Positions 1,898 to 58,013 of a stretch of DNA of 64,000 nt are shown here, in pieces. Position numbers and translations under genes: made by a program. The notes below the pieces were generated by a model. The model made no database searches. It was not told the DNA's origin and saw only the letters and a program-made list of their open reading frames with translations. Every line of letters starts with the position of its first letter. Within the stretch, counting starts at the first letter, position 1. The stretch is from an uncultured Candidatus Binatia bacterium (GTDB lineage: Bacteria > Desulfobacterota > Binatia > HRBIN30 > CADEER01), in assembly GCA_965216585.1 (NCBI GenBank), contig CBDCGC010000003.1, positions 2,337,219 to 2,401,218 of the forward strand, given 5' to 3'.

Positions 1898-3136
1898 CTA
1901 GGCCGGGCGAATGCTCACCGGCAGCTCCGTCAGCCGGCGCACGAACAGACTGGGTAGGTGGCGCGGGTCGGGTTCGGCCAGCTCGATCGCGCTGCTGCGC
2001 TCGAGCAGTCGCGTCAACGCGACACGCGCTTCCATGCGCGCCAGCTCAGCGCCGATGCACAGATGGACGCCGTGGCCGAAACCGAAGTGGCCGCGCGGAT
2101 TCGGCCGCTGTAGATCGATCTCATCCGGACGAGCAAACTCGCTTTCGTCGCGGTTGGCCGACGCCCAAAGCACCATCAGGCGCGTGCCAGCCGCGACCAG
2201 TTGACCATCGATCTCGGCATCGCGCACGGCCTGGCGGAAATGTCCGTAGAACGGCGACTCGAGGCGCACCGTCTCCTCGATGAACGCGGCCACCAGGCTG
2301 GGGTCGCTGCGCAGCTTCTCTTGCACGTCGCGATGTCGGGCCAGCAAGAGAATCGCACTGCCGATCAGTCCGCCGGTCGTTTCCTGCCCGGCCGTGATGA
2401 GCTGGACGAGAATGGCAACGGCTTCGTCTTCGGACAAAGCGCCACCGTCGCTCGAGACAGAGCGAGCCAGGGTGCCGAGGACGTTCTCCCGCGGCTCCTC
2501 GTAAACTTCGCGCAGACGCGTGCGCAAGTACTGGCCGAGCAAACCGGCCGAGCGCGCGTACTGCATGACCTGCTCACTGGTGTTGATGCCGTCGACCAGG
2601 CTGATGGCGTCGTCGGATAGGGATTGCAGCGTTTCGCGGTGGTCGAGCGGCAGGCCGAGCAGTCGGCAGATGATCGTCATCGGCAGCGGAACCGCATAGC
2701 GTGCCATGGCGTCGACGCTGCCACCTTCGTCGTCGAACAGGCGGTCGAGCAGATCGTCGACCAGCGACTCGACGTCTCCTTGCAGCGCCGCAACACGGCG
2801 CGGGGCAAAGGCCTGATTGACCAGTTTGCGCTGGCGCGTGTGATCGGGAGGATCGGCGATCGCCAATACGTTGGTACCGGCACCGTCGGGAAGCGGCAAC
2901 AAGCTCGGAGCCTCGCCCTGATCGCCGATCATCACGCCGATCATGCGCGAGGAGAAGCTGTCCGTGTCGAGGACGACGCGCCGGCAATCCTCAAAACGGC
3001 TCACCAGCCAGTAGGCGCGGTTGGGCAACTCGTAGAGCGGAGCCTCGCGGCGCAGCGTCGCGAAAAAGGGAAACGGATTTTCGATCGTCGCAGCGTCGAA
3101 CGGATCGATGTCGGCGAGGGCGGGCGCTTCGATCAT
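1898..3136 (-). CDS. cytochrome P450
   Basis: 412 aa; haem-binding loop FGFGHGVHLCIG; ETLR-type EXXR motif and AGQETT oxygen-binding helix. Confidence 0.9.
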   Translation of the reverse strand: MIEAPALADIDPFDAATIENPFPFFATLRREAPLYELPNRAYWLVSRFEDCRRVVLDTDSFSSRMIGVMIGDQGEAPSLLPLPDGAGTNVLAIADPPDHTRQRKLVNQAFAPRRVAALQGDVESLVDDLLDRLFDDEGGSVDAMARYAVPLPMTIICRLLGLPLDHRETLQSLSDDAISLVDGINTSEQVMQYARSAGLLGQYLRTRLREVYEEPRENVLGTLARSVSSDGGALSEDEAVAILVQLITAGQETTGGLIGSAILLLARHRDVQEKLRSDPSLVAAFIEETVRLESPFYGHFRQAVRDAEIDGQLVAAGTRLMVLWASANRDESEFARPDEIDLQRPNPRGHFGFGHGVHLCIGAELARMEARVALTRLLERSSAIELAEPDPRHLPSLFVRRLTELPVSIRPA

Positions 3137-4359
3137 CAGGCGTCGTCGAAGCGAATCGCCAATGATCCGGGCACGCGAAACAGCGACGGTCCCCAGTCGA
3201 CGGTGTCGTTTTCGAGCTCGAAGTTGCGAAAACGCGTCATCAAACCACCGATCGCCAACTCGCCTTCGAGATGAGCCAGGTGAGCACCGAGACAGAAGTG
3301 AGCACCGCCGCCGAAGGCGACATGCTCGTTGTCGGGACGGCGAATGTCAAAGACGTCAGGGTTCGCAAAGCGAGCCGGGTCGCGATTGGCCGCCGACAGC
3401 ATCCCCCATACGACGCTGTTCTTTGCAATCTTCGTCTCACCAAATACGAAGTCGTCGTGGAGAACCCGTGGCGTCAGCGGAATCGGCGAGTCATAGCGCA
3501 GGCACTCATCGACGGCGCCGCCGATGAGACTCGGCTGCTCGCGCAACAACTCGATCTGCTCGGGATGCCGGACCAGAGCTCGGGTTCCGTTGGCGATCAA
3601 ACCAATCGTCGTTTCGAAGCCGGCGATCAACAACCCGATGGACTGCGAGATGAGCTCCTCGGGCGACAGACTGTCTTCGGCATCTTCGGCGCGGATCAAG
3701 TTGGAAAGAATGTCATCGCCCAGATTGGCCCGCCGCTTTTCGATCAGGTCGACGAAATAGGCCGCTAGCGACTCACCGGCAAGGAAGGCTCGTTCGATCA
3801 CCTCGGGCGGAGCGATGCCCGCCGCCAGGCCGTGCGTCGCCTCCGCCGTCCACTGGGTAAAGCGCTCGCGATCACTCAGCGGCACACCCATCATCTCGCA
3901 GATCAAGGTCGACGGCACCGGCAGCGCCAGGTCGGCAACGACGTCCATGCCGCCTTTGCCGGCAACGCTGGCGAGACAAGTGTCGACCACTTCGGCAATC
4001 TTGGGCCGCAGCCGCTCGACCGCGCGCGGTGTGAAGCCGCGGCTCACCAGCTTGCGCAATCGCGTATGGTTGGGGGGGTCCTGCTGCAGCATGAATCGCC
4101 CGGGCCGACCGTCCTGATCCGCCACGAAGGGCAGGGCGCCATCAGTCGTCCGCACGCCCGCCGGCGCCTCGCGCAGCAGACGCACGACGTCGTCGTAGCG
4201 CGTCAGCCGCCACACACCGATGGGCGTGAGATTGACTGGATCGAGCTCGCGCAGCCGGCGCAAAGCCGGATAGGGATTGTCGCGAAAGCTCTGATCGAGC
4301 GGGTTGCAACCCTTCCAGGGATCGTCTTGCAGGATATCCGCTTTTGCTGTCATCGTCAC
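3136..4359 (-). CDS. cytochrome P450
   Basis: 407 aa; haem loop FGGGAHFCLGAHLA; AGFETT I-helix motif. Tandem with the preceding P450, with a 1-nt stop/start overlap. Confidence 0.9.
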   Translation of the reverse strand: MTMTAKADILQDDPWKGCNPLDQSFRDNPYPALRRLRELDPVNLTPIGVWRLTRYDDVVRLLREAPAGVRTTDGALPFVADQDGRPGRFMLQQDPPNHTRLRKLVSRGFTPRAVERLRPKIAEVVDTCLASVAGKGGMDVVADLALPVPSTLICEMMGVPLSDRERFTQWTAEATHGLAAGIAPPEVIERAFLAGESLAAYFVDLIEKRRANLGDDILSNLIRAEDAEDSLSPEELISQSIGLLIAGFETTIGLIANGTRALVRHPEQIELLREQPSLIGGAVDECLRYDSPIPLTPRVLHDDFVFGETKIAKNSVVWGMLSAANRDPARFANPDVFDIRRPDNEHVAFGGGAHFCLGAHLAHLEGELAIGGLMTRFRNFELENDTVDWGPSLFRVPGSLAIRFDDA

Positions 4360-4444
4360 CCTCGGCAGCTTCGACCAAACAACTGTAACGCGGCTTCGTC
4401 AAGCGACGCCCGCTGGGGCGCCGGCGGGTGCGAAAGGGAGTGAA

Positions 4445-5356
4445 ATGAAGATTGGATTGGCAATGGGTGGCGGCGACAACGAAACTCTGGAGGGATTGGT
4501 CGAGCGAATCGTCCAGGCAGAGAAGGCCGGTTTCCCCTCGGTCTGGCTGGCCAACATCTTCAGCCTCGACGCGCTGACCGTGCTGGCGCTGGCCGGCGGT
4601 CGCACCGAGCGCGTCGAGCTCGGCACCGCCGTCGTACCCACCTACCCGCGCCACCCGCACGCCCTGGCCCAGCAGGCCGCGACCGTCAACGTCGCCTGCG
4701 GCGGCCGCCTCGCCCTCGGCTTGGGGCGTTCACACCAAGCCGTGATCGAGCACATGTTCGGCATCCCCTACGACAAGCCGATCTCCCACATGCGCGAATA
4801 CCTCACCATCGTCCGCGACCTGACTCGCGACGGCACCTGCTCGGTCGACGGCAAGGCGTACAAGGTCAACGCAACCTTGAACGTCAAGGGGTCGTCTCCG
4901 TTTCCGGTGTTGGTCGGCGCTCTCATGCCAAAGATGCTCGAGCTCTGCGGCGAGCTCTGCGAGGGCACACTGACCTGGATGTCGGGCCCCAAGCACGTCG
5001 CCAACAACATCGTCCCAACCCTCGAAGCGGCGGCCAGGAAGGTCGGCCGGGAAACGCCGCGCGTCATCTGCTCCCTGCCGATCTGCGTTACCTCCAAAGT
5101 CGAGGAGGCGAGAGCCTTCGCGGCCAAGGCGTTCGAGATCTACGGCGTGCTACCGGTGTACCGCGCATGCCTGGATGAAGAGGGGGTGGCGGGTCCTGCC
5201 GACATCGCCCTGATTGGCGACGAGACGACCGTCCGCGCCGGTCTCGATCGCCTCGCCGACGCCGGTGCCACCGATTTCTACGGCGCGATGTTCCCGGCCC
5301 CCGATGACGCCGCGTCGATCGGGCGAACGACCGACTTTCTCTCAACCTTGACCTGA
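4445..5356 (+). CDS. LLM-class (luciferase-like monooxygenase fold) flavin/F420-dependent oxidoreductase
   Basis: ATG at 4445 preceded by a GGGAG Shine-Dalgarno. The protein MKIGLAMGGGDNETLEGLVERIVQAEKAGFPSVWLANIF... is typical of the TIM-barrel LLM family, F420-dependent subgroup-like. Confidence 0.75.
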   Translation: MKIGLAMGGGDNETLEGLVERIVQAEKAGFPSVWLANIFSLDALTVLALAGGRTERVELGTAVVPTYPRHPHALAQQAATVNVACGGRLALGLGRSHQAVIEHMFGIPYDKPISHMREYLTIVRDLTRDGTCSVDGKAYKVNATLNVKGSSPFPVLVGALMPKMLELCGELCEGTLTWMSGPKHVANNIVPTLEAAARKVGRETPRVICSLPICVTSKVEEARAFAAKAFEIYGVLPVYRACLDEEGVAGPADIALIGDETTVRAGLDRLADAGATDFYGAMFPAPDDAASIGRTTDFLSTLT

Positions 5357-5898: not shown

Positions 5899-7023
5899 TC
5901 AGGTTTCGTCCGGGTGCTTGGCACCGTCGAAGACTTTGACCTTGCCCCGGCTATCGGCGCCAGCGTAGGAGCCACCCTGGTAGTCCGAAAACACGTGCAA
6001 GGGGGTCGTCGACTTGGGGTTGAACTTTCCCGGGAAGGTGTTGCTGCCGACGCGCTTACCGTCAACCCACAAGGTCGTCACCCCTTCGTCCCACGTTGCC
6101 AGGACCTTGTGAGGCTCTCCCTGCTGCCAATCACCGATCTTGAAGCTGATATCCGCTTCGTGGCCACCGTCGTCGCGGACGATGAAACGAAGGAACTCGC
6201 CGTTCTTGACCAGTTGCATGGCGTTGCTCCACTCGTGTGGCTCACGCATTTGCAACAGCGAGTTGTTGGTCGGATCCGATCCGTTCCAATTGGGAATGAT
6301 GTCGAGTGCGACCGAACCCGACTCGATGTTGGCGTTGCCGAGGTTGGGAAAGGTGAGCTCGGCCTCTTCGCCAACCTCCAACCACTCGCCGTCATCGCTG
6401 TTTTCCACACCGTCGATGACGTTGGCCTTGCGATCGGCATCGTCCTGAGTCGTGACTTCGAGCAACACATCGTCGGTCGGATCGTCGTCGAGCTCGGTGC
6501 CATCATAAAATGGGTCGATGGTCGCTTCCTTGTTGCTCAGTAGCTCGACGCGGTCGCTGTTCGAGCGGCTTGGCGCGCCGGCGCTGCCCGTACGCTTCTT
6601 GCTGCTGATCCCGGGCGCCGTCGAAACCGAGCCACCGGAGGTGCGCCCCCTGCCGCTGCGGCTACCGCCGCCGATGACGCGGCCGCGCCGTGAGCCACGG
6701 CTTCCCGCCGTCACCGTATCGGCCCGTCCACCCTGCTTGCCGGCACCGCGCGCGGTGCCGAAACGAGAGCCGCGACCACCTTCGGCGCGCGCCGAGCGGC
6801 GCATCGAACGATTGCCGGCGCGACTGCTTTGCCGCCCGCCCGACCACTCTTCGCCGTCGAAGGAACCACCGCTGGCGCGGTCGCGCATCGCCATCTCGGT
6901 CCCATCCAAATCGTAGCCGGAGACAGAATCGAACTCACCGGTGTCGTCAGCCGAGAATCGCAGGGCGAAAAACCCAATCGCAATGGCGAGTATTCCGATC
7001 AGAAGAACGTGTGGCTTATCCAT
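5899..7023 (-). CDS. secreted/membrane-anchored protein with Arg/Gly-rich low-complexity region and C-terminal concanavalin/LamG-like jelly-roll domain
   Basis: N-terminal hydrophobic segment (LLIGILAIAIGFFAL), a long RG-rich stretch, and a C-terminal WVDGKRVGSNTFPGKF-type LamG-like region. Divergent from luxE. Confidence 0.5.
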   Translation of the reverse strand: MDKPHVLLIGILAIAIGFFALRFSADDTGEFDSVSGYDLDGTEMAMRDRASGGSFDGEEWSGGRQSSRAGNRSMRRSARAEGGRGSRFGTARGAGKQGGRADTVTAGSRGSRRGRVIGGGSRSGRGRTSGGSVSTAPGISSKKRTGSAGAPSRSNSDRVELLSNKEATIDPFYDGTELDDDPTDDVLLEVTTQDDADRKANVIDGVENSDDGEWLEVGEEAELTFPNLGNANIESGSVALDIIPNWNGSDPTNNSLLQMREPHEWSNAMQLVKNGEFLRFIVRDDGGHEADISFKIGDWQQGEPHKVLATWDEGVTTLWVDGKRVGSNTFPGKFNPKSTTPLHVFSDYQGGSYAGADSRGKVKVFDGAKHPDET

Positions 7024-7194
7024 GGATTGATGATGCCTCCAACCAAAATATGCTGTCCCCAGCGACGAGCCAAGTCAAGCGCGGATCTGCTCCACCGTCA
7101 TGGTCAACACGATATCAAGGGTTTGGACGCTCCTCCGGGCCCCGCGAGGGCACGGCCGTTTGGACGATCGCAGATCGCAGATTATTCTTCCCGG

Positions 7195-8283
7195 ATGCCG
7201 GGAATCTACGATCAGGTGCTCGCGTACATCGACCAGCCGGATGCGAGCGATTTCGACGACCTGGCACTGGCCGTCTTCGCTCACCAATACGCCGCCAATC
7301 GCCCCTACCGAGCGTTCTGTGAGAGCCGCGGCGCCGCGCCGAGCTCGCTGTCGAGTTGGCGCCAGATCCCAGCCGTGCCGATCCAGGCCTTCAAAGAGGT
7401 CGACCTCTGCTGCGGCGAAGCCGAACGCGTGTTCCTCTCGACCGGAACGACGGCGGGCGCAGACAAGCGATCGCGGCACTGCATGCCCGATTTGCGCCTC
7501 TATCGCCGCTCGGCAGTCGCCGGCCTGCGTCGTTTCCTGTTCCCCGACGTCGAGCGGATGAAGATGGTTTCCCTGATTCCACCCGTCACGGCGTGGCCCG
7601 ATTCATCTCTCGCCCAGATGGTGGCATGGGCGGGCGAAGACTTTTCCAGCGACGGCATCACCTACGCAACCGACGGAGAGGCGCCGCGTGTCGAAATGGT
7701 CGTCGATTGTCTGCGCGACAGCGAGCGCAGCGCCGAACCGCTGGCGATCTTCGCGACGACCGCAGCGCTCATTCAATTCCTCGACTACGCGCGCCAGGAG
7801 GGGCTCACCTTCCGCTTGCCGCACGACAGCCGCTTGATGGACACCGGCGGCGGCAAGGGAGCACCGCGACCGATGTCGCGCAAAGGCATTCTTCACGCAG
7901 TGTGGAATGCCTTCGCCATTCCGGGCTACTTCGCCGTCAACGAATACGGCATGGCCGAGATGTCGAGCCAATACTACGACTCGGTGATCTGCGATCGGTA
8001 CCGCGGCATCTTCGCGGCGCGCCGCCTGTTGGCACCCGAGTGGCTGCGCACCTGCGTGCTCGATCCAGTCGACCTCGAGCCGGTCGCCGACGGCGAAGCG
8101 GGACTGCTGTGTCACTACGATCTCGCCAATGCCGGCTCGGTGATGGCAATCCTCTCCGAGGATATGGGGAGAATCACCGGCGGCGGCTTGCAACACCTGG
8201 GACGTGCCCCGCAGGCGGAGGCTCGCGGTTGCTCACTGGCGGCCGGCGAGTGGAAGAGTGCGGCGCCAGCAGCGAGCGCCTGA
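7195..8283 (+). CDS. luxE: acyl-protein synthetase, LuxE family
   Basis: Clear similarity to LuxE: IPAVPIQAFKEV..FLSTGTTAG (compare IPVFPTSVFKF..FTSSGTNG) and MDTGGGKG (compare ITGGGWK). The ORF track starts at 6829 but overlaps the divergent gene, so ATG 7195 is chosen; start uncertain (ATG 7030/7033 also possible). Confidence 0.75.
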   Translation: MPGIYDQVLAYIDQPDASDFDDLALAVFAHQYAANRPYRAFCESRGAAPSSLSSWRQIPAVPIQAFKEVDLCCGEAERVFLSTGTTAGADKRSRHCMPDLRLYRRSAVAGLRRFLFPDVERMKMVSLIPPVTAWPDSSLAQMVAWAGEDFSSDGITYATDGEAPRVEMVVDCLRDSERSAEPLAIFATTAALIQFLDYARQEGLTFRLPHDSRLMDTGGGKGAPRPMSRKGILHAVWNAFAIPGYFAVNEYGMAEMSSQYYDSVICDRYRGIFAARRLLAPEWLRTCVLDPVDLEPVADGEAGLLCHYDLANAGSVMAILSEDMGRITGGGLQHLGRAPQAEARGCSLAAGEWKSAAPAASA

Positions 8284-8305
8284 TCAAACAGCCGTCAGCG
8301 CCATC

Positions 8306-9499
8306 ATGTCGGCGCTGCGCGCGGCGAATGCGCAGGCGGCAGCGTTGTCGCCACGCCAGCGGGCGGCAATCGTCGGCGAGTTGGCTGAGGCGTGGTTGCA
8401 GCCGGCATCACCGTGGTTGGCGCGCGCGGTAGACGCACTCACCGCCGCCGGGCCGTTCTCTCGGCCCATGCTCGAGCACGCTCTGCCGAGGATGATCGAA
8501 CCGCTGCGCGGCGATGCCATCGAACGCCTGGTGCGACGGGAGCTGGGCGACTGGCCCGAGCCAGCCGCAGCCAGTCTGGTAGTGCACATCCTGCCGAGCA
8601 ACCTGGCCGGGCACGCCGCGATTCCAGGCGCCCTGTCGCTCGTCGTCGGCGGCGCCTGCCTGCTCAAGTCCGGCCGTCGCGATCAGGACTTTGGCCGCCT
8701 GTGGGTCGAGTCGCTGCGCGCCACCAACGCCACGCTCGGAGCCTGCATCGAAAACCTGTACTGGCGCGGCGGCGATCGGCAGATTGAAGATTCAGTGTTC
8801 GGCGGTGCGGATGTGGTGATCGCGGCGGGCAGCGATCGCGCCATCGCCGACATCGGGGATCGCTGTCGAGGTCGATTCGCCGGCTACGGGCACCGCCTCA
8901 GCTTTGCCGTCGTCAGCGCCGGCGCCGACGTGCGCGCGGCGGCGAGCTGCTTGGCCGACGACATCGCGATCTGGGACCAACTGGGATGCTTGTCGCCACA
9001 GTCGTGCTTCGTCCAGGGCCCTCGCCAGCGCAGTGTCGAGCTGGCGGAACACCTCGCCGGCGAGCTGGCCGAGCGCGCACGGCGCTGGCCACCAGCCAGG
9101 CTGGAGGTCGGTGAGTTGCTGGCGATACGCCGCTTCCGCGACGCCGCGGCCTGGCGCGGCTTCGCGACAGGTGAGCCGTGTCTGTTTGCCGCCTCTGACG
9201 ATCTGGCCGCCGGCAACGTCGTCATCGACGAGGCCGGCAACTTCGCAGCGACGCCGCTCCACCGCTGCCTGCGCCTACTACCGTTTGCATCGCCAGACGA
9301 GGTGCGCGATGTCGTCGCAACGCAGCGCGGGCTTCTCGAAGGGGCGGCCGTCGCCGCACCGCCAGAGCAATGGGAGTCGTGGTGTGCGATCTTGCACGAG
9401 GCCGGTGTCCCGCAGGTGGTCGGCGCCGGAGAGCTCCAACGACCGACACTCGAGTGGCGGCAGAGCGGACGCGATCGGCTCGCCGGAGTCTATCTCTGA
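8306..9499 (+). CDS. luxC: acyl-CoA reductase, LuxC family (fatty aldehyde-forming)
   Basis: Similarity to LuxC: HILPSNLAGHAAIPGALSLVVGGACLLKSG, GADVVIAAGSDRAI, IWDQLGCLSPQSCFV (compare FYDQQACFSTQNIYY). Starts 23 nt after luxE. Confidence 0.75.
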   Translation: MSALRAANAQAAALSPRQRAAIVGELAEAWLQPASPWLARAVDALTAAGPFSRPMLEHALPRMIEPLRGDAIERLVRRELGDWPEPAAASLVVHILPSNLAGHAAIPGALSLVVGGACLLKSGRRDQDFGRLWVESLRATNATLGACIENLYWRGGDRQIEDSVFGGADVVIAAGSDRAIADIGDRCRGRFAGYGHRLSFAVVSAGADVRAAASCLADDIAIWDQLGCLSPQSCFVQGPRQRSVELAEHLAGELAERARRWPPARLEVGELLAIRRFRDAAAWRGFATGEPCLFAASDDLAAGNVVIDEAGNFAATPLHRCLRLLPFASPDEVRDVVATQRGLLEGAAVAAPPEQWESWCAILHEAGVPQVVGAGELQRPTLEWRQSGRDRLAGVYL

Positions 9500-9552
9500 C
9501 GACGGAAAGAAAAAGAGCGACGACCTTGAACAGCCACGGAATCGAGGAAGCA

Positions 9553-10773
9553 ATGAGCGCACGCAACGATCTGGTGAAACTCTTTCGCAGCCACGTCTGC
9601 CAGACGTCTGCCGAGCCGCTATCGATCGTCGTCGAACGCGCCAGTGGCGCCAAGATCTGGGATGTCGACGGACGCGAGTACCTCGACCTCTTGTCCGGCA
9701 TCGGAGTCACCGGCATCGGCCACTGCAACACCGAAGTCGTTGCTGCGATCGCAGAGCAAGCGCCGCGCTATCTACACGCGATGGTCTACGGCGAAGCGGT
9801 CGAGCGGCCGCAGGTCGAGCTGGCGCGCAAGTTGGCGGAGTTGGCGCCCGGCGACCTCTCGACCTCCTACTTCACCAACAGCGGCACCGAAGCGGTCGAA
9901 GGTGCACTCAAGCTCGCCCGCAAGCGCACGGGTCGAACGCGCTTCATCGCCTTCGAAGGCGGCTACCACGGCGATACGACTGGATCGCTGTCGCTGTGCG
10001 ACAATCGCGTGTACCGCTCGCCGTTCGAGCCACTCGGTCTGGACGTCGACTTTCTTCCCTTCGGCGACGTTGCCACCCTCGGCCGTATCGATGAATCGAT
10101 CGCCGCCGTCATCGTCGAGCCGATCCAGGGCGAGGGCGGCGTCCGTATTCCCACCGACGAGTTTCACCCCGCCCTGCGACATGCCTGCGACGAAGGCGGC
10201 TGCTTGTTGATCTACGACGAAGTGATGACCGGGCTCGGTCGCACCGGCCGATGGTTTGCCTGCCAGCACTGGGATGTCTGTCCGGACATCATGGTGCTGG
10301 CCAAAGCGCTGGGTGGCGGTCTACCGCTCGGGGCGTTCCTCGGATCCCCCGAGCTCATGGCCGAGCTCTCGCACGATCCACCGCTGTGCCACGTGACGAC
10401 CTTTGGCGGGCACCCACTGTCGTGCGCCGCCGGTTTGGCGGGCCTGGCGTATGCCGAAGGCGAAAATCTGCCGCAGCGCGCCGCTGAGCAAGGAAAGCAG
10501 TGGCTACTGAGGCTGTCGGCACTCATCGACGACCGCCTGCTCGACGTCCGCGGTCGCGGCATGTTGATCGCCCTCGAGTTTGCGACGCCGGAGCTGACGA
10601 GCGCGTTCTGCCGAACGGCCTTCGCCAATGGCTTGATCCTCAACTGGACCCTGCACCGCGACACCGTCGTTCGCCTGGCGCCGCCGCTCGTCATGACCGC
10701 CGAGGAAACCGAGAAGGCGTTCGAGCTGATCAGCGAATCGCTGTCGGCAGCCGGCGACGAGGCCGCCCCGTAG
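9553..10773 (+). CDS. class-III pyridoxal-phosphate aminotransferase (omega-transaminase / acetylornithine-aminotransferase family)
   Basis: Motifs FTNSGTEAVEGALKLAR, DEVMTGLGRTGRWFA and LAKALGGGLPLGAF; GAGGAAG Shine-Dalgarno before ATG 9553. Confidence 0.85.
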   Translation: MSARNDLVKLFRSHVCQTSAEPLSIVVERASGAKIWDVDGREYLDLLSGIGVTGIGHCNTEVVAAIAEQAPRYLHAMVYGEAVERPQVELARKLAELAPGDLSTSYFTNSGTEAVEGALKLARKRTGRTRFIAFEGGYHGDTTGSLSLCDNRVYRSPFEPLGLDVDFLPFGDVATLGRIDESIAAVIVEPIQGEGGVRIPTDEFHPALRHACDEGGCLLIYDEVMTGLGRTGRWFACQHWDVCPDIMVLAKALGGGLPLGAFLGSPELMAELSHDPPLCHVTTFGGHPLSCAAGLAGLAYAEGENLPQRAAEQGKQWLLRLSALIDDRLLDVRGRGMLIALEFATPELTSAFCRTAFANGLILNWTLHRDTVVRLAPPLVMTAEETEKAFELISESLSAAGDEAAP

Positions 10774-10810
10774 TCGGGTGTCGCAGCACCGAGCAGGACG
10801 GCGAATCACC

Positions 10811-12052
10811 ATGAAAGCTCTGTTGTACGAGAACAGCCTAGCGCGTCAGGTGGCTACGATGTTGCTTTCGCGTCTGAGCGCGCACGCCTTCGTCGGACCG
10901 CTGGCACCGGTGCAGTTGCGCGAGGTGGCGCAACCGGAGCTGCCAGCGGACGATTGGGTGATTCTGCGCACCCGCCTCTGCGGGTTGTGCGGCAGTGACT
11001 ACAAGCAAGTGTTCATGAATGGCAACTACGACAATCCGATGACCGCCGTCATCTCGTTTCCGCAGGTGCTCGGACACGAAGTGGTCGCCACCGTGGAAGA
11101 GGTGGGACCGGCGGTGACATCCCGCCGCCCCGGCGACCGCGTCGTTCTCAACCCGTGGCTGTCTTGTGCAACGCGCGGCGTCGAGCTCTGCGAGTGGTGC
11201 CGGCGCGGTGAGCTGGCGCAGTGTCGCAACTTCTGCCGCGGCACCATCGACCCCGGTATCCACACTGGCAACAGCAGGCACGCAACCGGCGGATTCGCAC
11301 CGTACTTACCGGCGCACGAGTCACAATGCATCGCCATTCCCGAGGGCATCAGCGACGAGGAGGCGGTTCTCGCCGATCCCTTCTCGGTCGCGCTGCACTC
11401 CGTCCTGCACTGGCCACCGCCGGCAGCGGCAAGCGCGCTCGTCTACGGCTGTGGAACCCTCGGACTGCTGACGATTGCGATCCTGCGCCTGCTCCACCCC
11501 CAGTGCCGGATCCTCGCCGTCGCGCGCTATCCCCACCAGTCCGCCTTGGCACGCCGCCTGGGCGCAGCCCTGGTGCTCGACCACCACCCGGCAGCGTCGA
11601 TCATTGAGGCAGTGGCGGACGACCTCGCAGTCGACGTACAGAGGCCGTGGCGCGGGCTGCCGATGCTCAACGGCGGCGTCGACGTCGTCTACGACACTGT
11701 TTCGGCGCCGCAGACACTCGAAGTGGGCGTACGCGTTGCGCGGCCGCGCGGCTCGATCGTCGTCACGGGCGTCGAGCCACCCAAGCGATTCGAATGGACA
11801 CCACTCTATTTCAAAGAGCTCTCGCTGATCGGCTCCAACGCCTTCGCCATCGAAGAGCACCAGGGGCGACGCATGCACGCGATGGAGTGGTACTTCGAGC
11901 TCATCCGCAGCCATGCGTTCGACGCGACAGCCATCATCACGCACCGCTACGCACTGGAAGACTACAAGCAGGCGTTCATGACTTGCTACGACCAGGGCAC
12001 GAGCAAGGCGGTGAAGGTTCTCTTCGACTATGGCGGCGAAGAGGCGCTCTGA
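10811..12052 (+). CDS. zinc-dependent alcohol dehydrogenase (MDR superfamily)
   Basis: CGLCGSDYKQ and GHEVVATVEEVG catalytic-Zn motifs, structural-Zn Cys cluster (CEWCRRGELAQCRNFC), Rossmann-fold VYGCGTLGL. Last gene of the luxE operon. Confidence 0.8.
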   Translation: MKALLYENSLARQVATMLLSRLSAHAFVGPLAPVQLREVAQPELPADDWVILRTRLCGLCGSDYKQVFMNGNYDNPMTAVISFPQVLGHEVVATVEEVGPAVTSRRPGDRVVLNPWLSCATRGVELCEWCRRGELAQCRNFCRGTIDPGIHTGNSRHATGGFAPYLPAHESQCIAIPEGISDEEAVLADPFSVALHSVLHWPPPAAASALVYGCGTLGLLTIAILRLLHPQCRILAVARYPHQSALARRLGAALVLDHHPAASIIEAVADDLAVDVQRPWRGLPMLNGGVDVVYDTVSAPQTLEVGVRVARPRGSIVVTGVEPPKRFEWTPLYFKELSLIGSNAFAIEEHQGRRMHAMEWYFELIRSHAFDATAIITHRYALEDYKQAFMTCYDQGTSKAVKVLFDYGGEEAL

Positions 12053-12064
12053 TCAGCACGCTCT

Positions 12065-13051
12065 TCAGTAGAGACTCTTCTCGCCCGGAGGTCTGGTTCG
12101 CCACCGCTTGTGAAACCAAATCCAGTGGTCGGGGTGCTTTCGCAGAATCTCCTCGATGGCGCCGTTGCACCGCTCGGTCGTGCGCTGGATGTCGGCTGCA
12201 CGATCGCCAGTGTCGGCGACCTCGATGTCGGGCAAGAAGACGACGCGGTGGCGCTCGCTCTCGCCTTCGCGGACGATGAAGATCGGAACGATCGGTGCTC
12301 CGGTGTGGTGGGCCATCCATGCCGGCCCGGTCGTCGTGCAGGCGGGAATACCAAAGAAATCGGCAAAGACACCGGCGTTGGCGGTTTGGTTCTGATCGGC
12401 GAGCAGGGCAATCATCTTCTTGTCGCGCAGGGCCCGCAACAGCGCGCGCGCGGCGCTCTTCTTGGGCACGGAAACCGAACCGGCGCCGGCCCGGAGATCG
12501 AGGATGAGACGATCGACGAGAGGGTTGCGCATGGTTCGGTGGGCGAGGGTAACCGGATAGCCGAGCAGGCCGTGCGCATGCGCCAGTAGCTCGAAGTTGC
12601 CGAAGTGGGCGGTCAGCATGATTCTGCCCTGACGATCTACGTCTTCGACGACCGACGTCCAGCGCTCGCGATCATCGATGGTGATGTAGCGATCGATGTC
12701 GCCGGCCGTGAGCGAGCGGAAATGGCACACCTCCGCCAACATCCGACCGAGGTTGCGACATGAGCGGCGCAGTACGGTTTCGTTCTCACCCAGCGAACGC
12801 TCGGGAAACGCGCGCGCCAGGTTGGCGAGGGCGACCCGCCGTTTGCTTTGGTCGACATAGTAAAACGCTTCGCCGATCTTGGCTCCGATGGCCAAGGCGC
12901 GGCGACGCGGCATCGAGCCCAGGAGCGCCAGGGCGGCTCGAACGGCACCGTATTCGAGCCGGTCGCGCGCGGTGATCGACGGCGCCGGCGTGCTACAACC
13001 TCGCGGCGAAGGCTTCTGCCTCGCGTGTTTGAAATCCGCTGTAGACCTCAC
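12065..13051 (-). CDS. LpxL/HtrB-family lipid A late acyltransferase (lysophospholipid acyltransferase superfamily)
   Basis: HFGNFE motif (the HX4(D/E)-type LpxL box) and N-terminal ...NLARAFPERS region typical of Kdo2-lipid IVA lauroyl/myristoyl transferases. Start at 13051 overlaps the upstream gene by 58 nt; the alternative ATG at 12913 is less consistent with the family N-terminus. Confidence 0.7.
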   Translation of the reverse strand: MRSTADFKHARQKPSPRGCSTPAPSITARDRLEYGAVRAALALLGSMPRRRALAIGAKIGEAFYYVDQSKRRVALANLARAFPERSLGENETVLRRSCRNLGRMLAEVCHFRSLTAGDIDRYITIDDRERWTSVVEDVDRQGRIMLTAHFGNFELLAHAHGLLGYPVTLAHRTMRNPLVDRLILDLRAGAGSVSVPKKSAARALLRALRDKKMIALLADQNQTANAGVFADFFGIPACTTTGPAWMAHHTGAPIVPIFIVREGESERHRVVFLPDIEVADTGDRAADIQRTTERCNGAIEEILRKHPDHWIWFHKRWRTRPPGEKSLY

Positions 13052-13562
13052 GGTCGATCTCGCGGTACTTCTCCAGCATGTCCGTCGCCCGCTGGGTGGC
13101 CTCTTGCTCGGCGGCGAGATCGTCCAGCTTTCGCTGGATCCACGAGATGTGCCACTTCTCGTCTTTCGTCACCTGATCGAGGATGCGCATCGTCTCGGGG
13201 TCGACATCCGGCCGCCGCGAGTGCTCCTGATAGCGCGCGTACGATCTCTCTTCGACGACCACCGTCAACGCCAGCAGATCGATCAGGCTCCTCGGGATGG
13301 TCCGCCGGCCGATCTGCTTCTGGTAGCCGTCACTCACCGGCAGCGGCTTCGCTCCCAGCTTGGAAATGCGCTCGGTCCACAACCAAGCGTGGTGAGTTTC
13401 TTCGGCAACGTGCAACGTCAACTTGACTTGCGCTTCCCGGTCATCGCGCAACCACTTGGTCAAACGCAAGAGCAAGCCTGCACCGTGCAACTCGGCATCG
13501 CGATAGTACGAGAAGATCTCCACCAAACGCGGATCCGTGCTCATCACACCCCCACCTCCCAT
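12993..13562 (-). CDS. ferritin-like di-iron carboxylate protein (putative oxygenase/hydroxylase)
   Basis: 189 aa with paired E...EXXH motifs (HVAEETHH, EERSYARYQEH, DEKWH) characteristic of the ferritin-like di-iron superfamily (MiaE/COQ7/rubrerythrin-like). Embedded between two LpxL-like genes. Confidence 0.55.
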   Translation of the reverse strand: MGGGGVMSTDPRLVEIFSYYRDAELHGAGLLLRLTKWLRDDREAQVKLTLHVAEETHHAWLWTERISKLGAKPLPVSDGYQKQIGRRTIPRSLIDLLALTVVVEERSYARYQEHSRRPDVDPETMRILDQVTKDEKWHISWIQRKLDDLAAEQEATQRATDMLEKYREIDREVYSGFQTREAEAFAARL

Positions 13563-13586
13563 CAGCCACTCGTGTCTCCTACTCGA

Positions 13587-14594
13587 CTACAAAACGCCGG
13601 CATCCGGATCAAGGTCTGGCTGCGGTCGGCGACGCCAACGCCGGTGCCACCACGCCCATTGACTGGGGTTTCTGCGGATGGCGTCGCCAAGCAAAACGTT
13701 CATGCGAACCGTCAGATCCCGAATGATGGCCGCCTCGTCCGGTCCCTGTGCCGGAAACAGGGGCTTTTCCAGCACCAGCTCGATTCCACCGGCCGGTTTG
13801 TGCAGCGAGTAGCCGACGACGATGGGCAGGTTGCGGCGCACCGCCAGCGTCGCCGGTGCCACCGGCGTCCGCGCATCGAGCCCGAGGAACGGAACGGTAA
13901 TCGAGGGCACGCGCGTGTCCTGGTCGACCAACATCGCCAAGACACCGCCATCCTTCAGTGTGCGCAGCAACTGTCGTCCAGCCCGCGGGCTGCCGCGCAG
14001 GATCGTATCGACGCCATTGGAAGCGCGGAAGTCGACGAGGATCCGGTTGAGCCGTGTTTCGTTCAGCTCGCGCGCCACCGCGGCGACGGGCAGCTTCACC
14101 ACCTGGGAAAAATAGGCGGCCAGCAGCTCCCAATTGCCGAGATGCCCGGAGCAGGCGATCGCACCGCGGTCGGCGTGGGGTCGGACCTCCTCCCAGCCCG
14201 ACACCGTCACGTACTCCTCGAGACGCGGCCGGAGCTCTTCGATCTTCGCCACTTCGAAGAAAGAAAGGGCGAAGCCACGAAGCGACTCGCGCACGATGTC
14301 CCGGCGCTCGCCTTCGCTCAACTCGTCGCCAAATACCATCGACAGATGTTGCATCGACAAGCGTCGCGTCTCGCCAAGGGCGTTGAAGGCCAGATCGCCG
14401 AGGCGGTCGGCGGCGCCTTTCGCCTGTTCGAACGAAACGTGCGAGGCCACTCCCAAGACGGCGCGCACGAGCTGGTAGAGGGCGGCGTCCTTGGCACCGT
14501 TGGCCACCGCGCGCATCCTCGGCGACCTCTTGTAGAGCTTTTTCACCATGGAACGGGCAAACGCTACATGAAACGCTGGAAACCGCGCTGACAA
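13587..14594 (-). CDS. LpxL/HtrB-family lipid A late acyltransferase (second copy)
   Basis: HLGNWE motif and an LpxL-like N-terminal region. Start may instead be the internal Met (MVKKLY..., about 14549). Confidence 0.7.
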   Translation of the reverse strand: MSARFPAFHVAFARSMVKKLYKRSPRMRAVANGAKDAALYQLVRAVLGVASHVSFEQAKGAADRLGDLAFNALGETRRLSMQHLSMVFGDELSEGERRDIVRESLRGFALSFFEVAKIEELRPRLEEYVTVSGWEEVRPHADRGAIACSGHLGNWELLAAYFSQVVKLPVAAVARELNETRLNRILVDFRASNGVDTILRGSPRAGRQLLRTLKDGGVLAMLVDQDTRVPSITVPFLGLDARTPVAPATLAVRRNLPIVVGYSLHKPAGGIELVLEKPLFPAQGPDEAAIIRDLTVRMNVLLGDAIRRNPSQWAWWHRRWRRRPQPDLDPDAGVL

Positions 14595-14618
14595 ATCAAC
14601 GACGGCCGTCGCCCAGTA

Positions 14619-15623
14619 CTACGTGACACCGGCTTTCAGCAGATCGTGTAGATGGACCACACCGACCGGCCGTTGCGATCTCGTCTCGACGATGAACAGG
14701 GATGTGATGCTGCGCTGCTGCATGATGGCGATGGCCTCGGCCGCCAGCGCGCCGGCGTCGACCGTCTTGGGACCGCGCGTCATCACCTCGGCAGCCGTCG
14801 TCCCGCGCACGTCGACGCGGCGCTCCATACTGCGGCGCAGATCGCCGTCGGTGATGACGCCAACCAGCTTGCCGCGCTCATCGACGACGGCCGTTACTCC
14901 CAGACGCTTGCCCGTCATCTCGACGATGGCATCACTCAGGGAGGTCGACGTTTGAACCACCGGCAACTCGCCGTCGCCGTGCATGATCTCTTCGACCCGG
15001 AGAAGCTTGCGTCCCAAGCTGCCCGCCGGATGGAGGATTGCGAAATCGCTTTCGGAAAAACCGCGGCGCTCGAGAAGAGCGACGGCCAGCGCATCGCCGA
15101 GCGCGAGTGCCGCCGTCGTGCTGGCGGTCGGCGCCAGGCCGAGTGGACATGCCTCCTCGGGTACGGCGGCATCGAGGGCGACGTCGGCGGCGCGCGCCAG
15201 CGTCGACTCGCCATCGCCGGTAATCGCTATCAGCGGCAGGGCGTAGCGTTTGACCAGCGGCAGCAGGCGGATCATCTCCTCGGTCTCGCCGCTGTGCGAG
15301 AGCGCCAGGATCGCATCACTGGAACCAACGACGCCGAAGTCGCCATGCACGGCTTCGGCGGCGTGGAGAAACGACGCCGGCGTGCCTGTGCTGGCCAGCG
15401 TGGCTGCGATTTTCCGGCAGATCAGACCCGACTTGCCCATGCCGACGACGACCACCTTGCCCTTACAGTCGGCGAGTATCTCGACCGCGCGTTCCATTCG
15501 ATCGTCGAGTGCCGCGCTGATCGCATCGATGGCAGCGCGCTCGATGGCGAGAACCCGCCGGGCGCTGGCCAGAGCTGACGTGGTCTCAGGCGGACGCGCG
15601 GCTGTTTTCTTTGCGGACGTCAT
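14619..15623 (-). CDS. kdsD: arabinose-5-phosphate isomerase, KpsF/GutQ family (SIS + tandem CBS domains)
   Basis: VVVVGMGKSGLICRKIAATLASTGTPASFLHAAEAVHGDFG SIS domain and a C-terminal CBS pair. In operon with kdsA/kdsB. Confidence 0.85.
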   Translation of the reverse strand: MTSAKKTAARPPETTSALASARRVLAIERAAIDAISAALDDRMERAVEILADCKGKVVVVGMGKSGLICRKIAATLASTGTPASFLHAAEAVHGDFGVVGSSDAILALSHSGETEEMIRLLPLVKRYALPLIAITGDGESTLARAADVALDAAVPEEACPLGLAPTASTTAALALGDALAVALLERRGFSESDFAILHPAGSLGRKLLRVEEIMHGDGELPVVQTSTSLSDAIVEMTGKRLGVTAVVDERGKLVGVITDGDLRRSMERRVDVRGTTAAEVMTRGPKTVDAGALAAEAIAIMQQRSITSLFIVETRSQRPVGVVHLHDLLKAGVT

Positions 15624-16425
15624 CGATCTGCTTGAGCTCTTTCAACAACTCCGGAAGCGCTGCCAGGCGTAGAGAGTTGGGTCCGTCACTGAGCGCTCTC
15701 TCGGGGTCTTCATGGGTCTCGACGAACAGGGCGTCTACGCCAACCGCCAATGCCGCTCGAGCCAACGGCGCGATGAGGTCGCGCTGCCCACCCGATGCAC
15801 CGCCCTGGCCGCCCGGCAACTGGGCGCTGTGCCCGGCGTCGAAGACGACAGGGTAGCCGAGGCCCGCCATGAAGGCGAGGCCACGCATGTCGGCAACCAG
15901 ATTGTTGTAGCCGAAGGTCGTGCCGCGCTCGGTGATCATGATCTGATGGTTGCCACCACTGGTCACCTTCTCGATGATCGGCGCGACATCCCAGGGAGCC
16001 AGGAATTGCCCCTTCTTGATGTTGACCGCCTTGCCGGTGGCGGCGGCGGCGAGCAACAGATCGGTCTGGCGACAGAGAAAGGCGGGGATCTGCAGCAGGT
16101 CGGCGACTGCTGCAACCGCCGGAATCTGCGCAGCCTCGTGCACGTCGGTGACCACCGGTACGCCGACTTCTTTCTTGACGTCGGCGAGAATGGCCAGCCC
16201 GTCCTCGAGACCCGGACCGCGCGGTGAGTCGAGGGACGTGCGATTGGCTTTGTCGAAGGACGACTTGTAGACGAACGGAATCGACAGCGATGCGGTGATC
16301 TCGCGCATCGCCTCGGCGTGGCGCAGCGCGCTGTCGCGGCTTTCGATCGTACAGGTGCCACCGATGAAGACGAAAGGTCGGCCGGCGCCGATGCGCACCG
16401 TGCCGACGGCGACCTCACGGTTCAT
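15586..16425 (-). CDS. kdsA: 3-deoxy-8-phosphooctulonate synthase (Kdo8P synthase)
   Basis: 279 aa; FVFIGGTCTIESRD...PFVYKSSFDKANRTS...GYPVVFDAGHS KdsA signature. 38-nt overlap with kdsD. Confidence 0.9.
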   Translation of the reverse strand: MNREVAVGTVRIGAGRPFVFIGGTCTIESRDSALRHAEAMREITASLSIPFVYKSSFDKANRTSLDSPRGPGLEDGLAILADVKKEVGVPVVTDVHEAAQIPAVAAVADLLQIPAFLCRQTDLLLAAAATGKAVNIKKGQFLAPWDVAPIIEKVTSGGNHQIMITERGTTFGYNNLVADMRGLAFMAGLGYPVVFDAGHSAQLPGGQGGASGGQRDLIAPLARAALAVGVDALFVETHEDPERALSDGPNSLRLAALPELLKELKQIDDVRKENSRASA

Positions 16426-16429
16426 GCGC

Positions 16430-18867
<2,438 letters not shown>

Positions 18868-30344: not shown

Positions 30345-31439
30345 GTGGCCGAGAATCTCCTGACAATCCACCCCGATCTGGACGAGATGATGCGCGTCCG
30401 TTTTGGTGGCTGCGTCACCATCTCCCGGCGCGAGCCAATCGCCGGCGACGCCTCCTCTCTGCGCTCGTACGTCCGCCTGTGGCTCGACGGCCAGGACGCA
30501 CCGGCAACGGCGGTCGCCATGGTGATGCAGGGACTCGAGGCGGCGAAAACTTCGGAGGAGGGGGGCGAAGAGGTCGAAAGCGACGAGATTCCCTTCGTCA
30601 ACGTCTACCATTTTCTCGTCGCCAACGAGGTGTCGGTACCGGAGATCTACGTCGACGCCGCTGAGGATGGCGTGTTGATCCTCGAAGACGTCGGCGACGT
30701 CGCGCTGTGGGACGCGGTGGAAAACGCACCGGCAAACGAGACCCGCCGTCTCTTCGGTCTCGCCATCGAGCAGCTCTTGCGCATCCAGATCGACGGCACC
30801 GCGTCGCGCGACGAAGCGTGCATCGGCTTCTCGCGCCAATTCGACGAGGATCTCTACATGTGGGAGCTCGAGCACTTTCTCGAGTGGGGTTTCAGCGGTA
30901 TCGACGGTCCTCCTGCCGCCGCCGAGCTACGCGAGTTGCGGCGCTGCTTTGCCAAGCTCGCCGCCGATCTGGGCAACCAACCGCGCGTCCTCAACCACCG
31001 CGACTATCACGCCTGGAATCTCTACCTGCACGACGGCCGTATCCGCGTCATCGACTTCCAGGATCTACTCCTCGCGGCGGCGCCGTACGATCTGGCAACA
31101 CTGCTCGGCGATCGCATCACACCGAGCGCCATCGATGCCGAGCTCGAGCGAGCTCTGGTAGCCGACTACGGAAACGCCTGGGCACAGCATCCGGCGGCGC
31201 CGTGGCGTTTTGACGATGAAGAGCTCTGGCGCGTGTACCGCGATTGCGCCCTTCAGAAGGCCTTCAAGGTCGTGGGAAGGTTTCACTACCTCGACCGCGT
31301 CAAGCAGAAGTCGTCTCACCTGCGCTTCATTCCGCCAACCCTCGAACGCATCCAGACATTGTTGACCGAGCGAGACGACCCCGAGATGCGCGTCGTACAC
31401 GAAATCCTGCAGCCGTATTTTGCGGAGCTGCGGGCGTGA
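30345..31439 (+). CDS. aminoglycoside-phosphotransferase/choline-kinase-fold kinase, AmgK-like (anomeric MurNAc/GlcNAc kinase candidate)
   Basis: Brenner motif HRDYHAWNL and DFQD. Adjacent to an NTP-transferase, as in the AmgK-MurU peptidoglycan-recycling pair. Start uncertain (GTG 30345 or ATG about 30387). Confidence 0.65.
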   Translation: MAENLLTIHPDLDEMMRVRFGGCVTISRREPIAGDASSLRSYVRLWLDGQDAPATAVAMVMQGLEAAKTSEEGGEEVESDEIPFVNVYHFLVANEVSVPEIYVDAAEDGVLILEDVGDVALWDAVENAPANETRRLFGLAIEQLLRIQIDGTASRDEACIGFSRQFDEDLYMWELEHFLEWGFSGIDGPPAAAELRELRRCFAKLAADLGNQPRVLNHRDYHAWNLYLHDGRIRVIDFQDLLLAAAPYDLATLLGDRITPSAIDAELERALVADYGNAWAQHPAAPWRFDDEELWRVYRDCALQKAFKVVGRFHYLDRVKQKSSHLRFIPPTLERIQTLLTERDDPEMRVVHEILQPYFAELRA

Positions 31440-31444
31440 AGGCG

Positions 31445-52785: not shown

Positions 52786-52856
52786 CTCACCGTCACCAAC
52801 GCAGTTCGCCCGCAGCGCAGATACGTGCTTGGCTAGCAGCGTGAGGGCTGCTCCCG

Positions 52857-57793: not shown

Positions 57794-58011
57794 TCGAGGA
57801 TCGGTGGCTGACGCAGTCGCGGGCGATCTATAGGCGCCTGCTGGACGGCACCGCAACCGCGCGCGATCGACTCGACATCGCGATCATGGTGCATGAGATG
57901 CGCGAGGCGCACCTGCCGGTACCGGCCGAGATCGTGGCGGCTGCCGGCGCGCCGCCGGCTTGGTACCTCGCTGGCGACCCGATGCCGGCGGCAGAGCGGA
58001 GGAGGGTTTAG
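57790..58011 (+). CDS. hypothetical protein
   Basis: MIEDRWLTQSRAIYRRLLDG...; ATGA overlap with the upstream ORF. Confidence 0.3.
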   Translation: MIEDRWLTQSRAIYRRLLDGTATARDRLDIAIMVHEMREAHLPVPAEIVAAAGAPPAWYLAGDPMPAAERRRV

Positions 58012-58013
58012 GG

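Follow-up and report, generated by a model that had tools for sequence, protein, structure and literature searches.

A LuxE-LuxC pair conserved with a class-III aminotransferase in Candidatus Binatia, a candidate acid-to-amine module

The gene cluster and its protein families

The window analyzed here is a 64-kb stretch (~64% G+C) of contig CBDCGC010000003.1 from an uncultured Candidatus Binatia bacterium of soil or sediment. Within positions 7195 to 12052, four open reading frames (ORFs) follow one another on the plus strand with intergenic gaps of 22, 53, and 37 bp. They encode a LuxE-family acyl-protein synthetase, a LuxC-family acyl-thioester reductase, a class-III (omega) aminotransferase (AT), and a Zn-dependent dehydrogenase (ADH) of the medium-chain dehydrogenase/reductase (MDR) type (Table 1). 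The subject of this analysis is the LuxE-LuxC-AT set, which recurs in Binatia genomes and is a candidate route from a carboxylic acid to a primary amine. An earlier sequence-only reading of the same DNA had described four closely spaced plus-strand genes of these families; the ORF calls agreed with this layout, and profile searches upheld the assignments of all four proteins, with Pfam matches above the cut-offs for LuxE and LuxC.

The LuxE-family protein matched its Pfam profile at 42.2 bits (cut-off 24.9, residues 20-349), and the LuxC-family protein matched its own (cd07080) at 153.7 bits (cut-off 21, residues 40-379). Among solved structures, significant sequence similarity to the two proteins was confined to the LuxC-LuxE complex of Photobacterium phosphoreum (7XC6). 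PpLuxE (7XC6_E) was the single PDB match of the LuxE-family protein at E<=0.001 (E=9e-12), and a profile built from 25 LuxC homologues reached PpLuxC (7XC6_A) at E=4e-32. The AlphaFold model of LuxC (pLDDT 94) had the same PpLuxC chain as its best PDB fold match (TM 0.83, E=3e-19), followed by generic aldehyde dehydrogenases at ~1e-13. Scores against the NCBIfam equivalogs were 39.8 bits for LuxE (NF052244, cut-off 550) and 38.1 bits for LuxC (NF052251, cut-off 750), short of orthology in both cases. Judged from their sequences, the two proteins are family members that retain the mechanistic cysteines and the arm arginine of the Photobacterium enzymes, not lux orthologues. The closest LuxC homologues, 45-53% identical, came from Candidatus Binatia. 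LuxC-type reductases abound beyond luminous bacteria, with 5,631 clusters at 50% identity matching the LuxC profile (E<=1e-3). Exact-sequence look-ups of the window LuxC returned no match, and context was taken from homologues.

LuxE-type enzymes self-acylate; in PpLuxE, Cys364 of the C-terminal arm motif 358-TRxxKGCxLS-367 carries the acyl group to LuxC, and Arg355 is essential (PMC9157457). When the C-terminus of the window LuxE was examined, the arm motif GRAPQAEARGCSLA was found 16 residues from the end, in the form GR-x6-E-x-RGCSL, and in the C-terminal stretch GRAPQAEARGCSLAAGEW the arginine stands exactly nine residues ahead of the cysteine. The GR-x6-E-x-RGCSL motif was kept in 62 of 64 LuxE homologues from Binatia and Verrucomicrobiota. 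In the pairwise alignment, the lysine of TGGGK221 fell one residue off Lys238 of PpLuxE (TGGGWK); a TGGxK lysine was present in all 64 homologues. Cys228 of LuxC (DQLGC228LSPQ) aligned with the catalytic Cys296 of PpLuxC (DQQAC296FSTQ) and was invariant in 25 homologues. Because the LuxC cysteine and the Cys/Arg motif of the LuxE arm are conserved, the self-acylating, carrier-free mechanism of acid reduction is very probably retained.

The AT matched Aminotran_3 at 350.8 bits, and its best solved relatives were the Thermus LysJ/acetylornithine AT and the Escherichia coli putrescine AT (PatA). It scored below every NCBIfam equivalog cut-off, including those of ArgD (NF002874, 359.9 versus 457) and TIGR00707 (338.4 versus 410). 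The motif with the pyridoxal phosphate-binding lysine (VLAK-ALGGG) and the VVR-LAPPL motif, with its arginine before PPL, aligned with LysJ and PatA; the arginine of the R-x-x-PPL motif presumably binds the α-carboxylate of glutamate or 2-oxoglutarate. In the YHG-D141-T motif, the window AT has an aspartate, kept in 119 of 120 AT homologues, at the position occupied by arginine in the acetylornithine ATs 3NX3, 1VEF, 7NN1, and 8HT2 and by lysine in PatA. Among solved structures, this aspartate is common to the AT and BioA. In ArgD, OAT, and GabT, the arginine at that position binds the substrate carboxylate (Arg180 in OAT, Arg141 in GabT). Because aspartate replaces the arginine found in all four aligned acetylornithine ATs, the protein is not ArgD as far as this motif and the profile scores go, nor is it GabT or OAT. 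One possibility is that Asp141 recognizes a cationic group near the carbonyl.

The ADH matched ADH_N at 78.1 bits and ADH_zinc_N at 59.9 bits. Its C-G-S-D, G-H-E (Zn ligands), and GCGTLG (GxGxxG) motifs were invariant in 32 homologues, and the family is unusually conserved, with a mean column identity of 77% over these 32 sequences. The nearest families were the threonine, sorbitol, galactitol-1-phosphate, and butanediol dehydrogenases, all far under their equivalog cut-offs; the score was 123 bits against 458 for Tdh and 52.5 against 470 for the aldehyde reductase Ahr, and other named enzymes were below cut-off too. The predicted structure confirmed the MDR fold, with three insertions modeled at low AlphaFold confidence (residues 70-85, 144-157, and 326-341). 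Fold matches were spread over all MDR types, and the fold search with this structure gave no preference among primary-alcohol, secondary-alcohol, and polyol dehydrogenases.

Table 1 The LuxE-LuxC-AT-ADH locus and its flanks, in window coordinates
Feature	Position	Strand	Length	Family or evidence
LuxE-family acyl-protein synthetase	7195-8283	+	362 aa	Pfam LuxE PF04443
LuxC-family acyl-thioester reductase	8306-9499	+	397 aa	Pfam LuxC PF05893
Class-III (omega) aminotransferase (AT)	9553-10773	+	406 aa	Aminotran_3
Zn-dependent MDR dehydrogenase (ADH), facultative fourth gene	10811-12052	+	413 aa	ADH_N + ADH_zinc_N
Presumed promoter region, divergent intergenic, between the minus-strand LamG-domain gene and the luxE-like gene	7024-7194	.	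171 bp	
Membrane-anchored LamG-domain protein, divergent from luxE (context, membership not shown)	5899-7023	-		Laminin_G_3
LpxL-like/ferritin-like/LpxL-like/KdsD/KdsA/PyrG/KdsB block, convergent (context, membership not shown)	12065-18867	-		Pfam + NCBIfam

Conservation of the gene set

The window proteins were compared by tblastn with 93 fetched loci (cited below by L number), among them 22 distinct Binatia-type loci. LuxE and LuxC were adjacent in all 22. The AT came directly after LuxC in 18 of the 19 Binatia loci with sequence at that point, at LuxC identities down to 31%, and the called genes overlapped stop to start at the LuxE/LuxC and LuxC/AT junctions in several loci (L004, L005, L091, and L092). 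An ADH directly after the AT was found in 9 of 18 Binatia loci. Because the AT follows LuxC in 18/19 loci, against 9/18 for the ADH after the AT, the conserved unit is, on these comparisons, LuxE-LuxC-AT, and the ADH is a facultative fourth gene; by the same comparisons, the LuxE-LuxC-AT arrangement is not due to chance. The sequence-only reading had named co-occurrence of all four genes, and their co-occurrence with lpxL-like genes, as points to be compared across genomes. In this comparison, LuxE-LuxC-AT was strongly co-conserved, the ADH was a facultative neighbor, and the lpxL-like association was confined to 8 of 18 loci in one sub-clade.

In a neighbor-joining tree of the AT, adjacency of the ADH was seen in basal and shallow branches; because of this distribution, it is probably ancestral and was lost at least twice. 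Where the ADH is missing after the AT, a large repeat protein is encoded there in L009 (12376-14865), L012 (6598-9789), and L092 (10291-12096); those of L012 and L092 gave weak Dicty_CTDC, DUF4215, or Ice_binding matches, and that of L009 had no Pfam match. ADHs 70-72% identical were found without LuxE, LuxC, or AT in L087 (2869-4113) and L089 (7963-9186). Their neighbors there are genes for a short-chain dehydrogenase/reductase (SDR), a thiolase/ChsH2-type protein, a fatty-acid hydroxylase, and an AMP-ligase, a setting that resembles lipid catabolism.

A LuxE-LuxC pair followed directly or closely by an SDR gene was found on plasmids of Azospirillum lipoferum 4B (AZO_p2, L094), Pantoea dispersa (L095), and Lactiplantibacillus plantarum (L096). 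By annotation, the LuxE-like member of these trios is either a long-chain fatty acid-CoA ligase or an acyl-CoA synthetase and the LuxC-like member an acyl-CoA reductase; solute transporter genes adjoin. The trios recur in these tractable, cultured bacteria and have the look of an acid-to-alcohol set. The trios share with the Binatia locus a non-luminous pair and an aldehyde-consuming type of enzyme; however, this enzyme is an SDR, not an AT, LuxC identity is 25-30%, and the comparison is one of annotations.

These trios bear on the question of whether the main product might be an alcohol, or a precursor of waxes or ether lipids, formed through the MDR dehydrogenase, with the AT in a side or scavenging role. 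Recurrence of LuxE-LuxC with an SDR dehydrogenase in cultured bacteria would suit such a route, as would the ancestral position of the ADH in basal and shallow Binatia clades. However, the ADH is adjacent in 9/18 loci whereas the AT is nearly universal, its close copies occur without LuxE-LuxC, and it scored 123 bits against threonine/polyol dehydrogenase models compared to 52 bits against Ahr, so that we regard this outcome as improbable. The sequence-only reading had counted the ADH as a pathway member reducing a fatty aldehyde. The assignment to the Zn-MDR family stands; the roles of fixed member and fatty-aldehyde reductase are weakened by the 9/18 loci, the polyol/threonine-dehydrogenase branch, and the copies elsewhere.

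Two Myxococcota loci carry the genes in the order AT-LuxE-LuxC, with an AT 39-42% identical to that of the window and leucine instead of aspartate in the YHGx motif. We read this arrangement as a likely independent recruitment of the same enzyme type. When the neighbors of the deep-clade and Myxococcota loci were surveyed (DUF4079, MacB-type ABC, ABC1 kinase, SufBCD, and PAPS reductase genes), no recurrent partner was found beyond the AT and the ADH.

Genes around the cluster

Upstream, the product of the divergent LamG-domain gene is anchored in the membrane and combines a long low-complexity stretch rich in Gly, Ser, and Arg with a LamG domain at its C-terminus. It is co-conserved upstream of LuxE through the shallow Binatia clade only and is absent in deep clades. 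A sigma-70 consensus scan of the intergenic region found no site, this consensus being uninformative for the phylum, and promoter and terminator consensus scans of 6800-13700 returned fewer sites than in shuffled sequence and were uninformative as well.

Downstream, 12 bp separate the ADH stop codon (12050-12052) from that of the convergent LpxL-like gene (12065-13051), and the coordinates thus confirmed the 12-bp gap to a lipid-A late-acyltransferase gene given in the sequence-only reading. That reading had further suggested that the product feeds the acyltransferase operon. In this form, an amine or alcohol would be handed to the adjacent LpxL-like acyltransferases and built into lipid A or another envelope lipid. 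The LpxL-ferritin-LpxL-Kds block adjoins the cluster in 8 of 18 loci and persists where the ADH is missing (L011, L091, and L092) or the upstream flank has changed (L092). A surface-glycoconjugate context also has a precedent in the luxC/luxE homologues, of unassigned role, that lie in Aeromonas flagellin-glycosylation islands (PMC7874193). However, all eight loci belong to one shallow Binatia sub-clade of the AT tree, and the block is always convergent on the cluster at a spacing of ~5 to 239 bp. In L005, an inserted MazE/PemK (MazEF) toxin-antitoxin pair (14087-14634) separates the ADH from the convergent LpxL-like gene, so that this junction evidently tolerates insertions. In deep clades, LuxE-LuxC-AT(-ADH) stands beside unrelated genes (DUF4079, MacB-type ABC transporter, and ABC1 kinase). 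Because the adjacency is kept despite the missing ADH and the altered upstream flank, it was interpreted as old synteny, and the two LpxL paralogues with kdsABD look like an ordinary lipopolysaccharide (LPS) core locus. Neither a hand-over of product to the LpxL block nor a role in lipid A finds support, and we consider this scenario very unlikely.

Between the two LpxL-like genes lies a gene for a ferritin-like di-iron protein of 189 aa (12993-13562, minus strand) with invariant E24, E55xxH58, E104/E105, and E135xxH138; it is kept at this position in the window, L001, L005, L008, L011, L086, and L092. The ferritin-like ORF and the annotated beginning of the LpxL-like ORF 12065-13051 share 59 bp, and the LpxL-like gene therefore probably starts further downstream. 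The protein could be a lipid A acyl-chain oxygenase, a specific function for which no support was found. It was also considered as an aldehyde-deformylating oxygenase and rejected as unsupported, since a profile search of the PDB reached aldehyde decarbonylase at E=1 and its best matches, to bacterioferritin/Dps, were themselves weak (E=1e-5).

Pfam scans covered selected long ORFs of the window, mostly of at least 200 aa, and ORFs below 200 aa were mostly left out. Among the selected ORFs, no luxA, luxB, or luxD (Acyl_transf_2) was found, as the sequence-only reading had stated. The sole Bac_luciferase member, encoded at 4304-5356 (plus strand), was examined as a hidden luxAB and rejected, being a TIGR03564 F420-dependent oxidoreductase (317.8 bits, cut-off 234); it is 31% identical to a luciferase-like protein (LLM) near the Myxococcota cluster. 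This gene and two minus-strand cytochrome P450 genes occupy 1898-5356, where syntenic relatives have groES/groEL, which suggests that this stretch was inserted or replaced locally. Further along the window, a third P450 gene lies at 50119-51309 and one for an F420H2-dependent quinone reductase at 52216-52896.

Other parts of the window are described for completeness. Genes for an SNF2-family helicase, a YqaJ-type exonuclease, and a RecT recombinase stand in a row at 57960-62844, a phage-type recombination module that may mark the border of a prophage or integrated element. At 30345-32182, an APH-family kinase gene is followed by an overlapping sugar-phosphate nucleotidyltransferase gene, a pair that we take to resemble the AmgK/MurU pair of MurNAc recycling; a patatin-like phospholipase is encoded at 32320-33657. 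AT skew reaches ~+0.2 between 24000 and 28000, over minus-strand nuo genes for NADH dehydrogenase membrane subunits, which probably reflects the codon or amino-acid composition of these hydrophobic proteins.

A proposed acid-to-amine route, its alternatives, and its meaning

We give even chances to the interpretation that LuxE-LuxC-AT is a module converting an acid through an aldehyde into a primary amine, with the ADH acting at the same carbonyl/alcohol node. LuxE would adenylate a free carboxylic acid with ATP and form an acyl thioester on the cysteine of its flexible C-terminal arm, which would then hand the acyl group to Cys228 of LuxC. Reduction of the thioester by LuxC with NAD(P)H would give the aldehyde, and the class-III AT would convert the aldehyde into the primary amine, with formation of a 2-oxo acid and probably glutamate as the amino donor. 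As an accessory enzyme, the ADH may interconvert aldehyde and alcohol or oxidize a secondary hydroxyl on the same molecule. The sequence-only reading had reasoned in the same way from a LuxE/LuxC aldehyde to a primary amine made by a class-III AT, and the strong co-conservation of the three genes, which are often translationally coupled, speaks for this logic. It is also in its favor that LuxE-LuxC was joined independently to a different AT in Myxococcota, and that in Azospirillum, Pantoea, and Lactiplantibacillus the pair precedes another aldehyde-consuming type of enzyme, the SDR.

Compared with the lux LuxC-LuxE system of P. phosphoreum (7XC6), the Binatia module shares the two families and their adjacency, the catalytic cysteine, and the Arg/Cys arm motif of LuxE, with the TGGxK lysine offset by one residue. 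It differs in its low identity (~18%), in the absence of luxD, luxA, and luxB, and in a LuxC that is ~90 residues shorter (397 versus 488 aa). The aldehyde, which goes to luciferase in lux, would go to the AT in the proposed module.

The chemistry itself has precedents, and as far as the chemistry goes, the remark of the sequence-only reading that it knew of no characterized system with this exact composition is not supported. TamA and TamH of the Pseudoalteromonas tambjamine pathway turn fatty acids into amines (PMC9594044, PMC5939613). In Streptomyces, TabE and the omega-transaminase TabA make dodecylamine, and TabE was placed by its authors in the sequence-similarity cluster of LuxC (bioRxiv 10.1101/2025.08.11.669332). 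PigE of prodigiosin synthesis reduces a thioester and then transaminates (PMC8341465; PDB 4PPM). None of these works with a LuxE-type partner, and all of them belong to pigment gene clusters. For the Binatia module the same three steps as in the Tam and Tab systems are proposed, namely ATP-dependent acid activation, thioester reduction, and omega-transamination, and the genes for all three are encoded together, as seen at family level and by co-conservation; the likeness drawn here is one of chemistry. However, the acid in the Tam and Tab systems is carried on an acyl carrier protein (ACP) or on CoA, TamH fuses a transaminase to a thioester reductase of the SDR type, and neither system has a LuxE-type synthetase. 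They also sit in secondary-metabolite clusters, whereas the Binatia module is a clade-wide, core-like locus, and Pfam scans of the selected ORFs of the 64-kb window found no genes for ACP, polyketide or nonribosomal peptide synthases, or pyrrole formation. The AT domain of PigE is a significant relative of the window AT (NCBIfam PigE, 294 bits against a cut-off of 850; 4PPM, E=4e-58), but PigE is a single 850-aa fusion that acts on a specific keto-thioester, with neither LuxE nor LuxC.

Several observations weigh against the proposed route, and the first of them concern the coherence of the gene set. Synteny extends over the whole region within the clade and inflates the adjacency counts. One genome, GCA_030430165.1, has a split block, with AT-ADH ~14 kb from LuxE-LuxC on the same contig, and strict co-transcription is therefore not required. 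About 60 Verrucomicrobiota loci (L023-L084) carry LuxE-LuxC with no AT within 10 kb, so that at least one further use of the pair must exist. The housekeeping genes around these Verrucomicrobiota pairs (metG, ftsA/Z, mutY, and queD) gave no functional clue. A QueD/PTPS-family gene was observed directly downstream of LuxC in 42 of these loci, and an MFS transporter gene between LuxE and LuxC in 12.

Accordingly, we considered that two unrelated pairs might simply lie side by side, LuxE-LuxC in a housekeeping-like role similar to that in Verrucomicrobiota and AT-ADH making an LPS amino sugar, in the manner of Shewanella KdnB/KdnA, a pair for alcohol oxidation and transamination encoded beside Kdo genes. 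KdnA performs the aminotransferase step that leads to 8-amino-Kdo and is not known to be a class-III AT. Kdo8N synthesis starts with KdnB, a Kdo 8-oxidase of the Fe-ADH family (PMC5125639). The likeness to KdnB/KdnA is thus one of logic only, and the two pairs are set apart by family assignment alone. In the split genome, LuxE-LuxC stands with LamG/GroEL, and AT-ADH, overlapping by 4 bp, is attached to LpxL-ferritin-LpxL-KdsD-KdsA-PyrG-KdsB; the place of the ADH in the polyol-dehydrogenase branch would also fit an amino-sugar role. However, the AT accompanies LuxE-LuxC in 18/19 loci, including deep clades without LpxL/Kds genes nearby and six shallow-clade loci without the ADH, and LuxC and AT overlap stop to start in L004, L005, and L092. 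The AT is thus tied to LuxE-LuxC and not to the Kdo genes, and two unrelated pairs seem unlikely.

The remaining points against the proposed route concern its substrate. The only characterized LuxE/LuxC enzymes use long-chain fatty acids, and in PpLuxC the segment P460-P488, an oligomerization element from the neighboring subunit, closes a 40-angstrom L-shaped hydrophobic cleft (PMC9157457). By family, the acid is probably lipophilic, fatty or similar. A counterpart of PpLuxC ~457-488 was not found in the window LuxC, with the profile ending at ~PpLuxC 456 as judged by alignment end-points. The window LuxC therefore appears to be without the cleft-capping C-terminal segment, and a long-chain substrate is not assured. 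The sequence-only reading had called the product fatty; its aldehyde logic holds, and the fatty character was an assumption that the apparent loss of this cleft-closing element does not favor. In addition, the closest solved relatives of the AT act on polar substrates (acetylornithine/LysW-lysine and putrescine), and the invariant Asp141 would suit a cationic substrate over a purely aliphatic one.

Such features would suit a substrate that is a polar amino or dicarboxylic acid, processed in a bypass resembling ProB/ProA/ArgD or converted through an amino-aldehyde to a diamine or polyamine. The relatedness of the AT to LysJ/acetylornithine AT and putrescine AT points in this direction, as does the aspartate in place of arginine, which it shares with BioA, an enzyme whose substrate bears an amino group adjacent to its carbonyl. 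The proteins of the LuxC clade are short, apparently with no cap over the hydrophobic cleft, and the plasmid LuxE-LuxC-SDR trios adjoin solute transporters. LuxC has also been likened to gamma-glutamyl-phosphate reductase, with the catalytic cysteine alone retained (PMC12041015). However, the missing arginine of the acetylornithine ATs excludes acetylornithine-type substrates, the leucine of the Myxococcota AT suits a hydrophobic substrate, and the characterized LuxE/LuxC enzymes use only long-chain fatty acids, as noted above. A polar substrate is thus considered unlikely.

Taken to its physiological end, the acid-to-amine route would mean that Binatia use a carrier-free reductase of the LuxE/LuxC type and a dedicated omega-AT to make a constitutive, clade-wide amine (a fatty amine, amino-alcohol, or diamine), possibly as a lipid associated with the envelope or LPS. 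In this extended form it is a doubtful proposal, to which we assign a low probability. If it were true, non-luminous LuxC/LuxE pairs, of which there are thousands, would gain their first physiological role, and bacteria a new class of amine lipids. A product that is an envelope constituent would represent new lipid biology; a small polar amine would add a new variant to amino-acid or polyamine metabolism. Literature searches that combined LuxC/LuxE with an aminotransferase, or Binatia with LuxC, yielded no study of the module. In the literature searched, lux is the only LuxC/LuxE pair with an assigned role, and the module offers a testable function for the pair in one large clade. What is new is the lux fatty-acid-reductase pair rewired to an AT throughout a clade; the logic from acid to aldehyde to amine is known and is unsurprising to a specialist. 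Should the module operate as proposed, it would in nature take a free acid to a primary amine with three enzymes and no carrier, a conversion for which biocatalysis now combines carboxylic acid reductase (CAR) enzymes with transaminases, and it would give Binatia, a widespread uncultured phylum, a defined metabolic trait.

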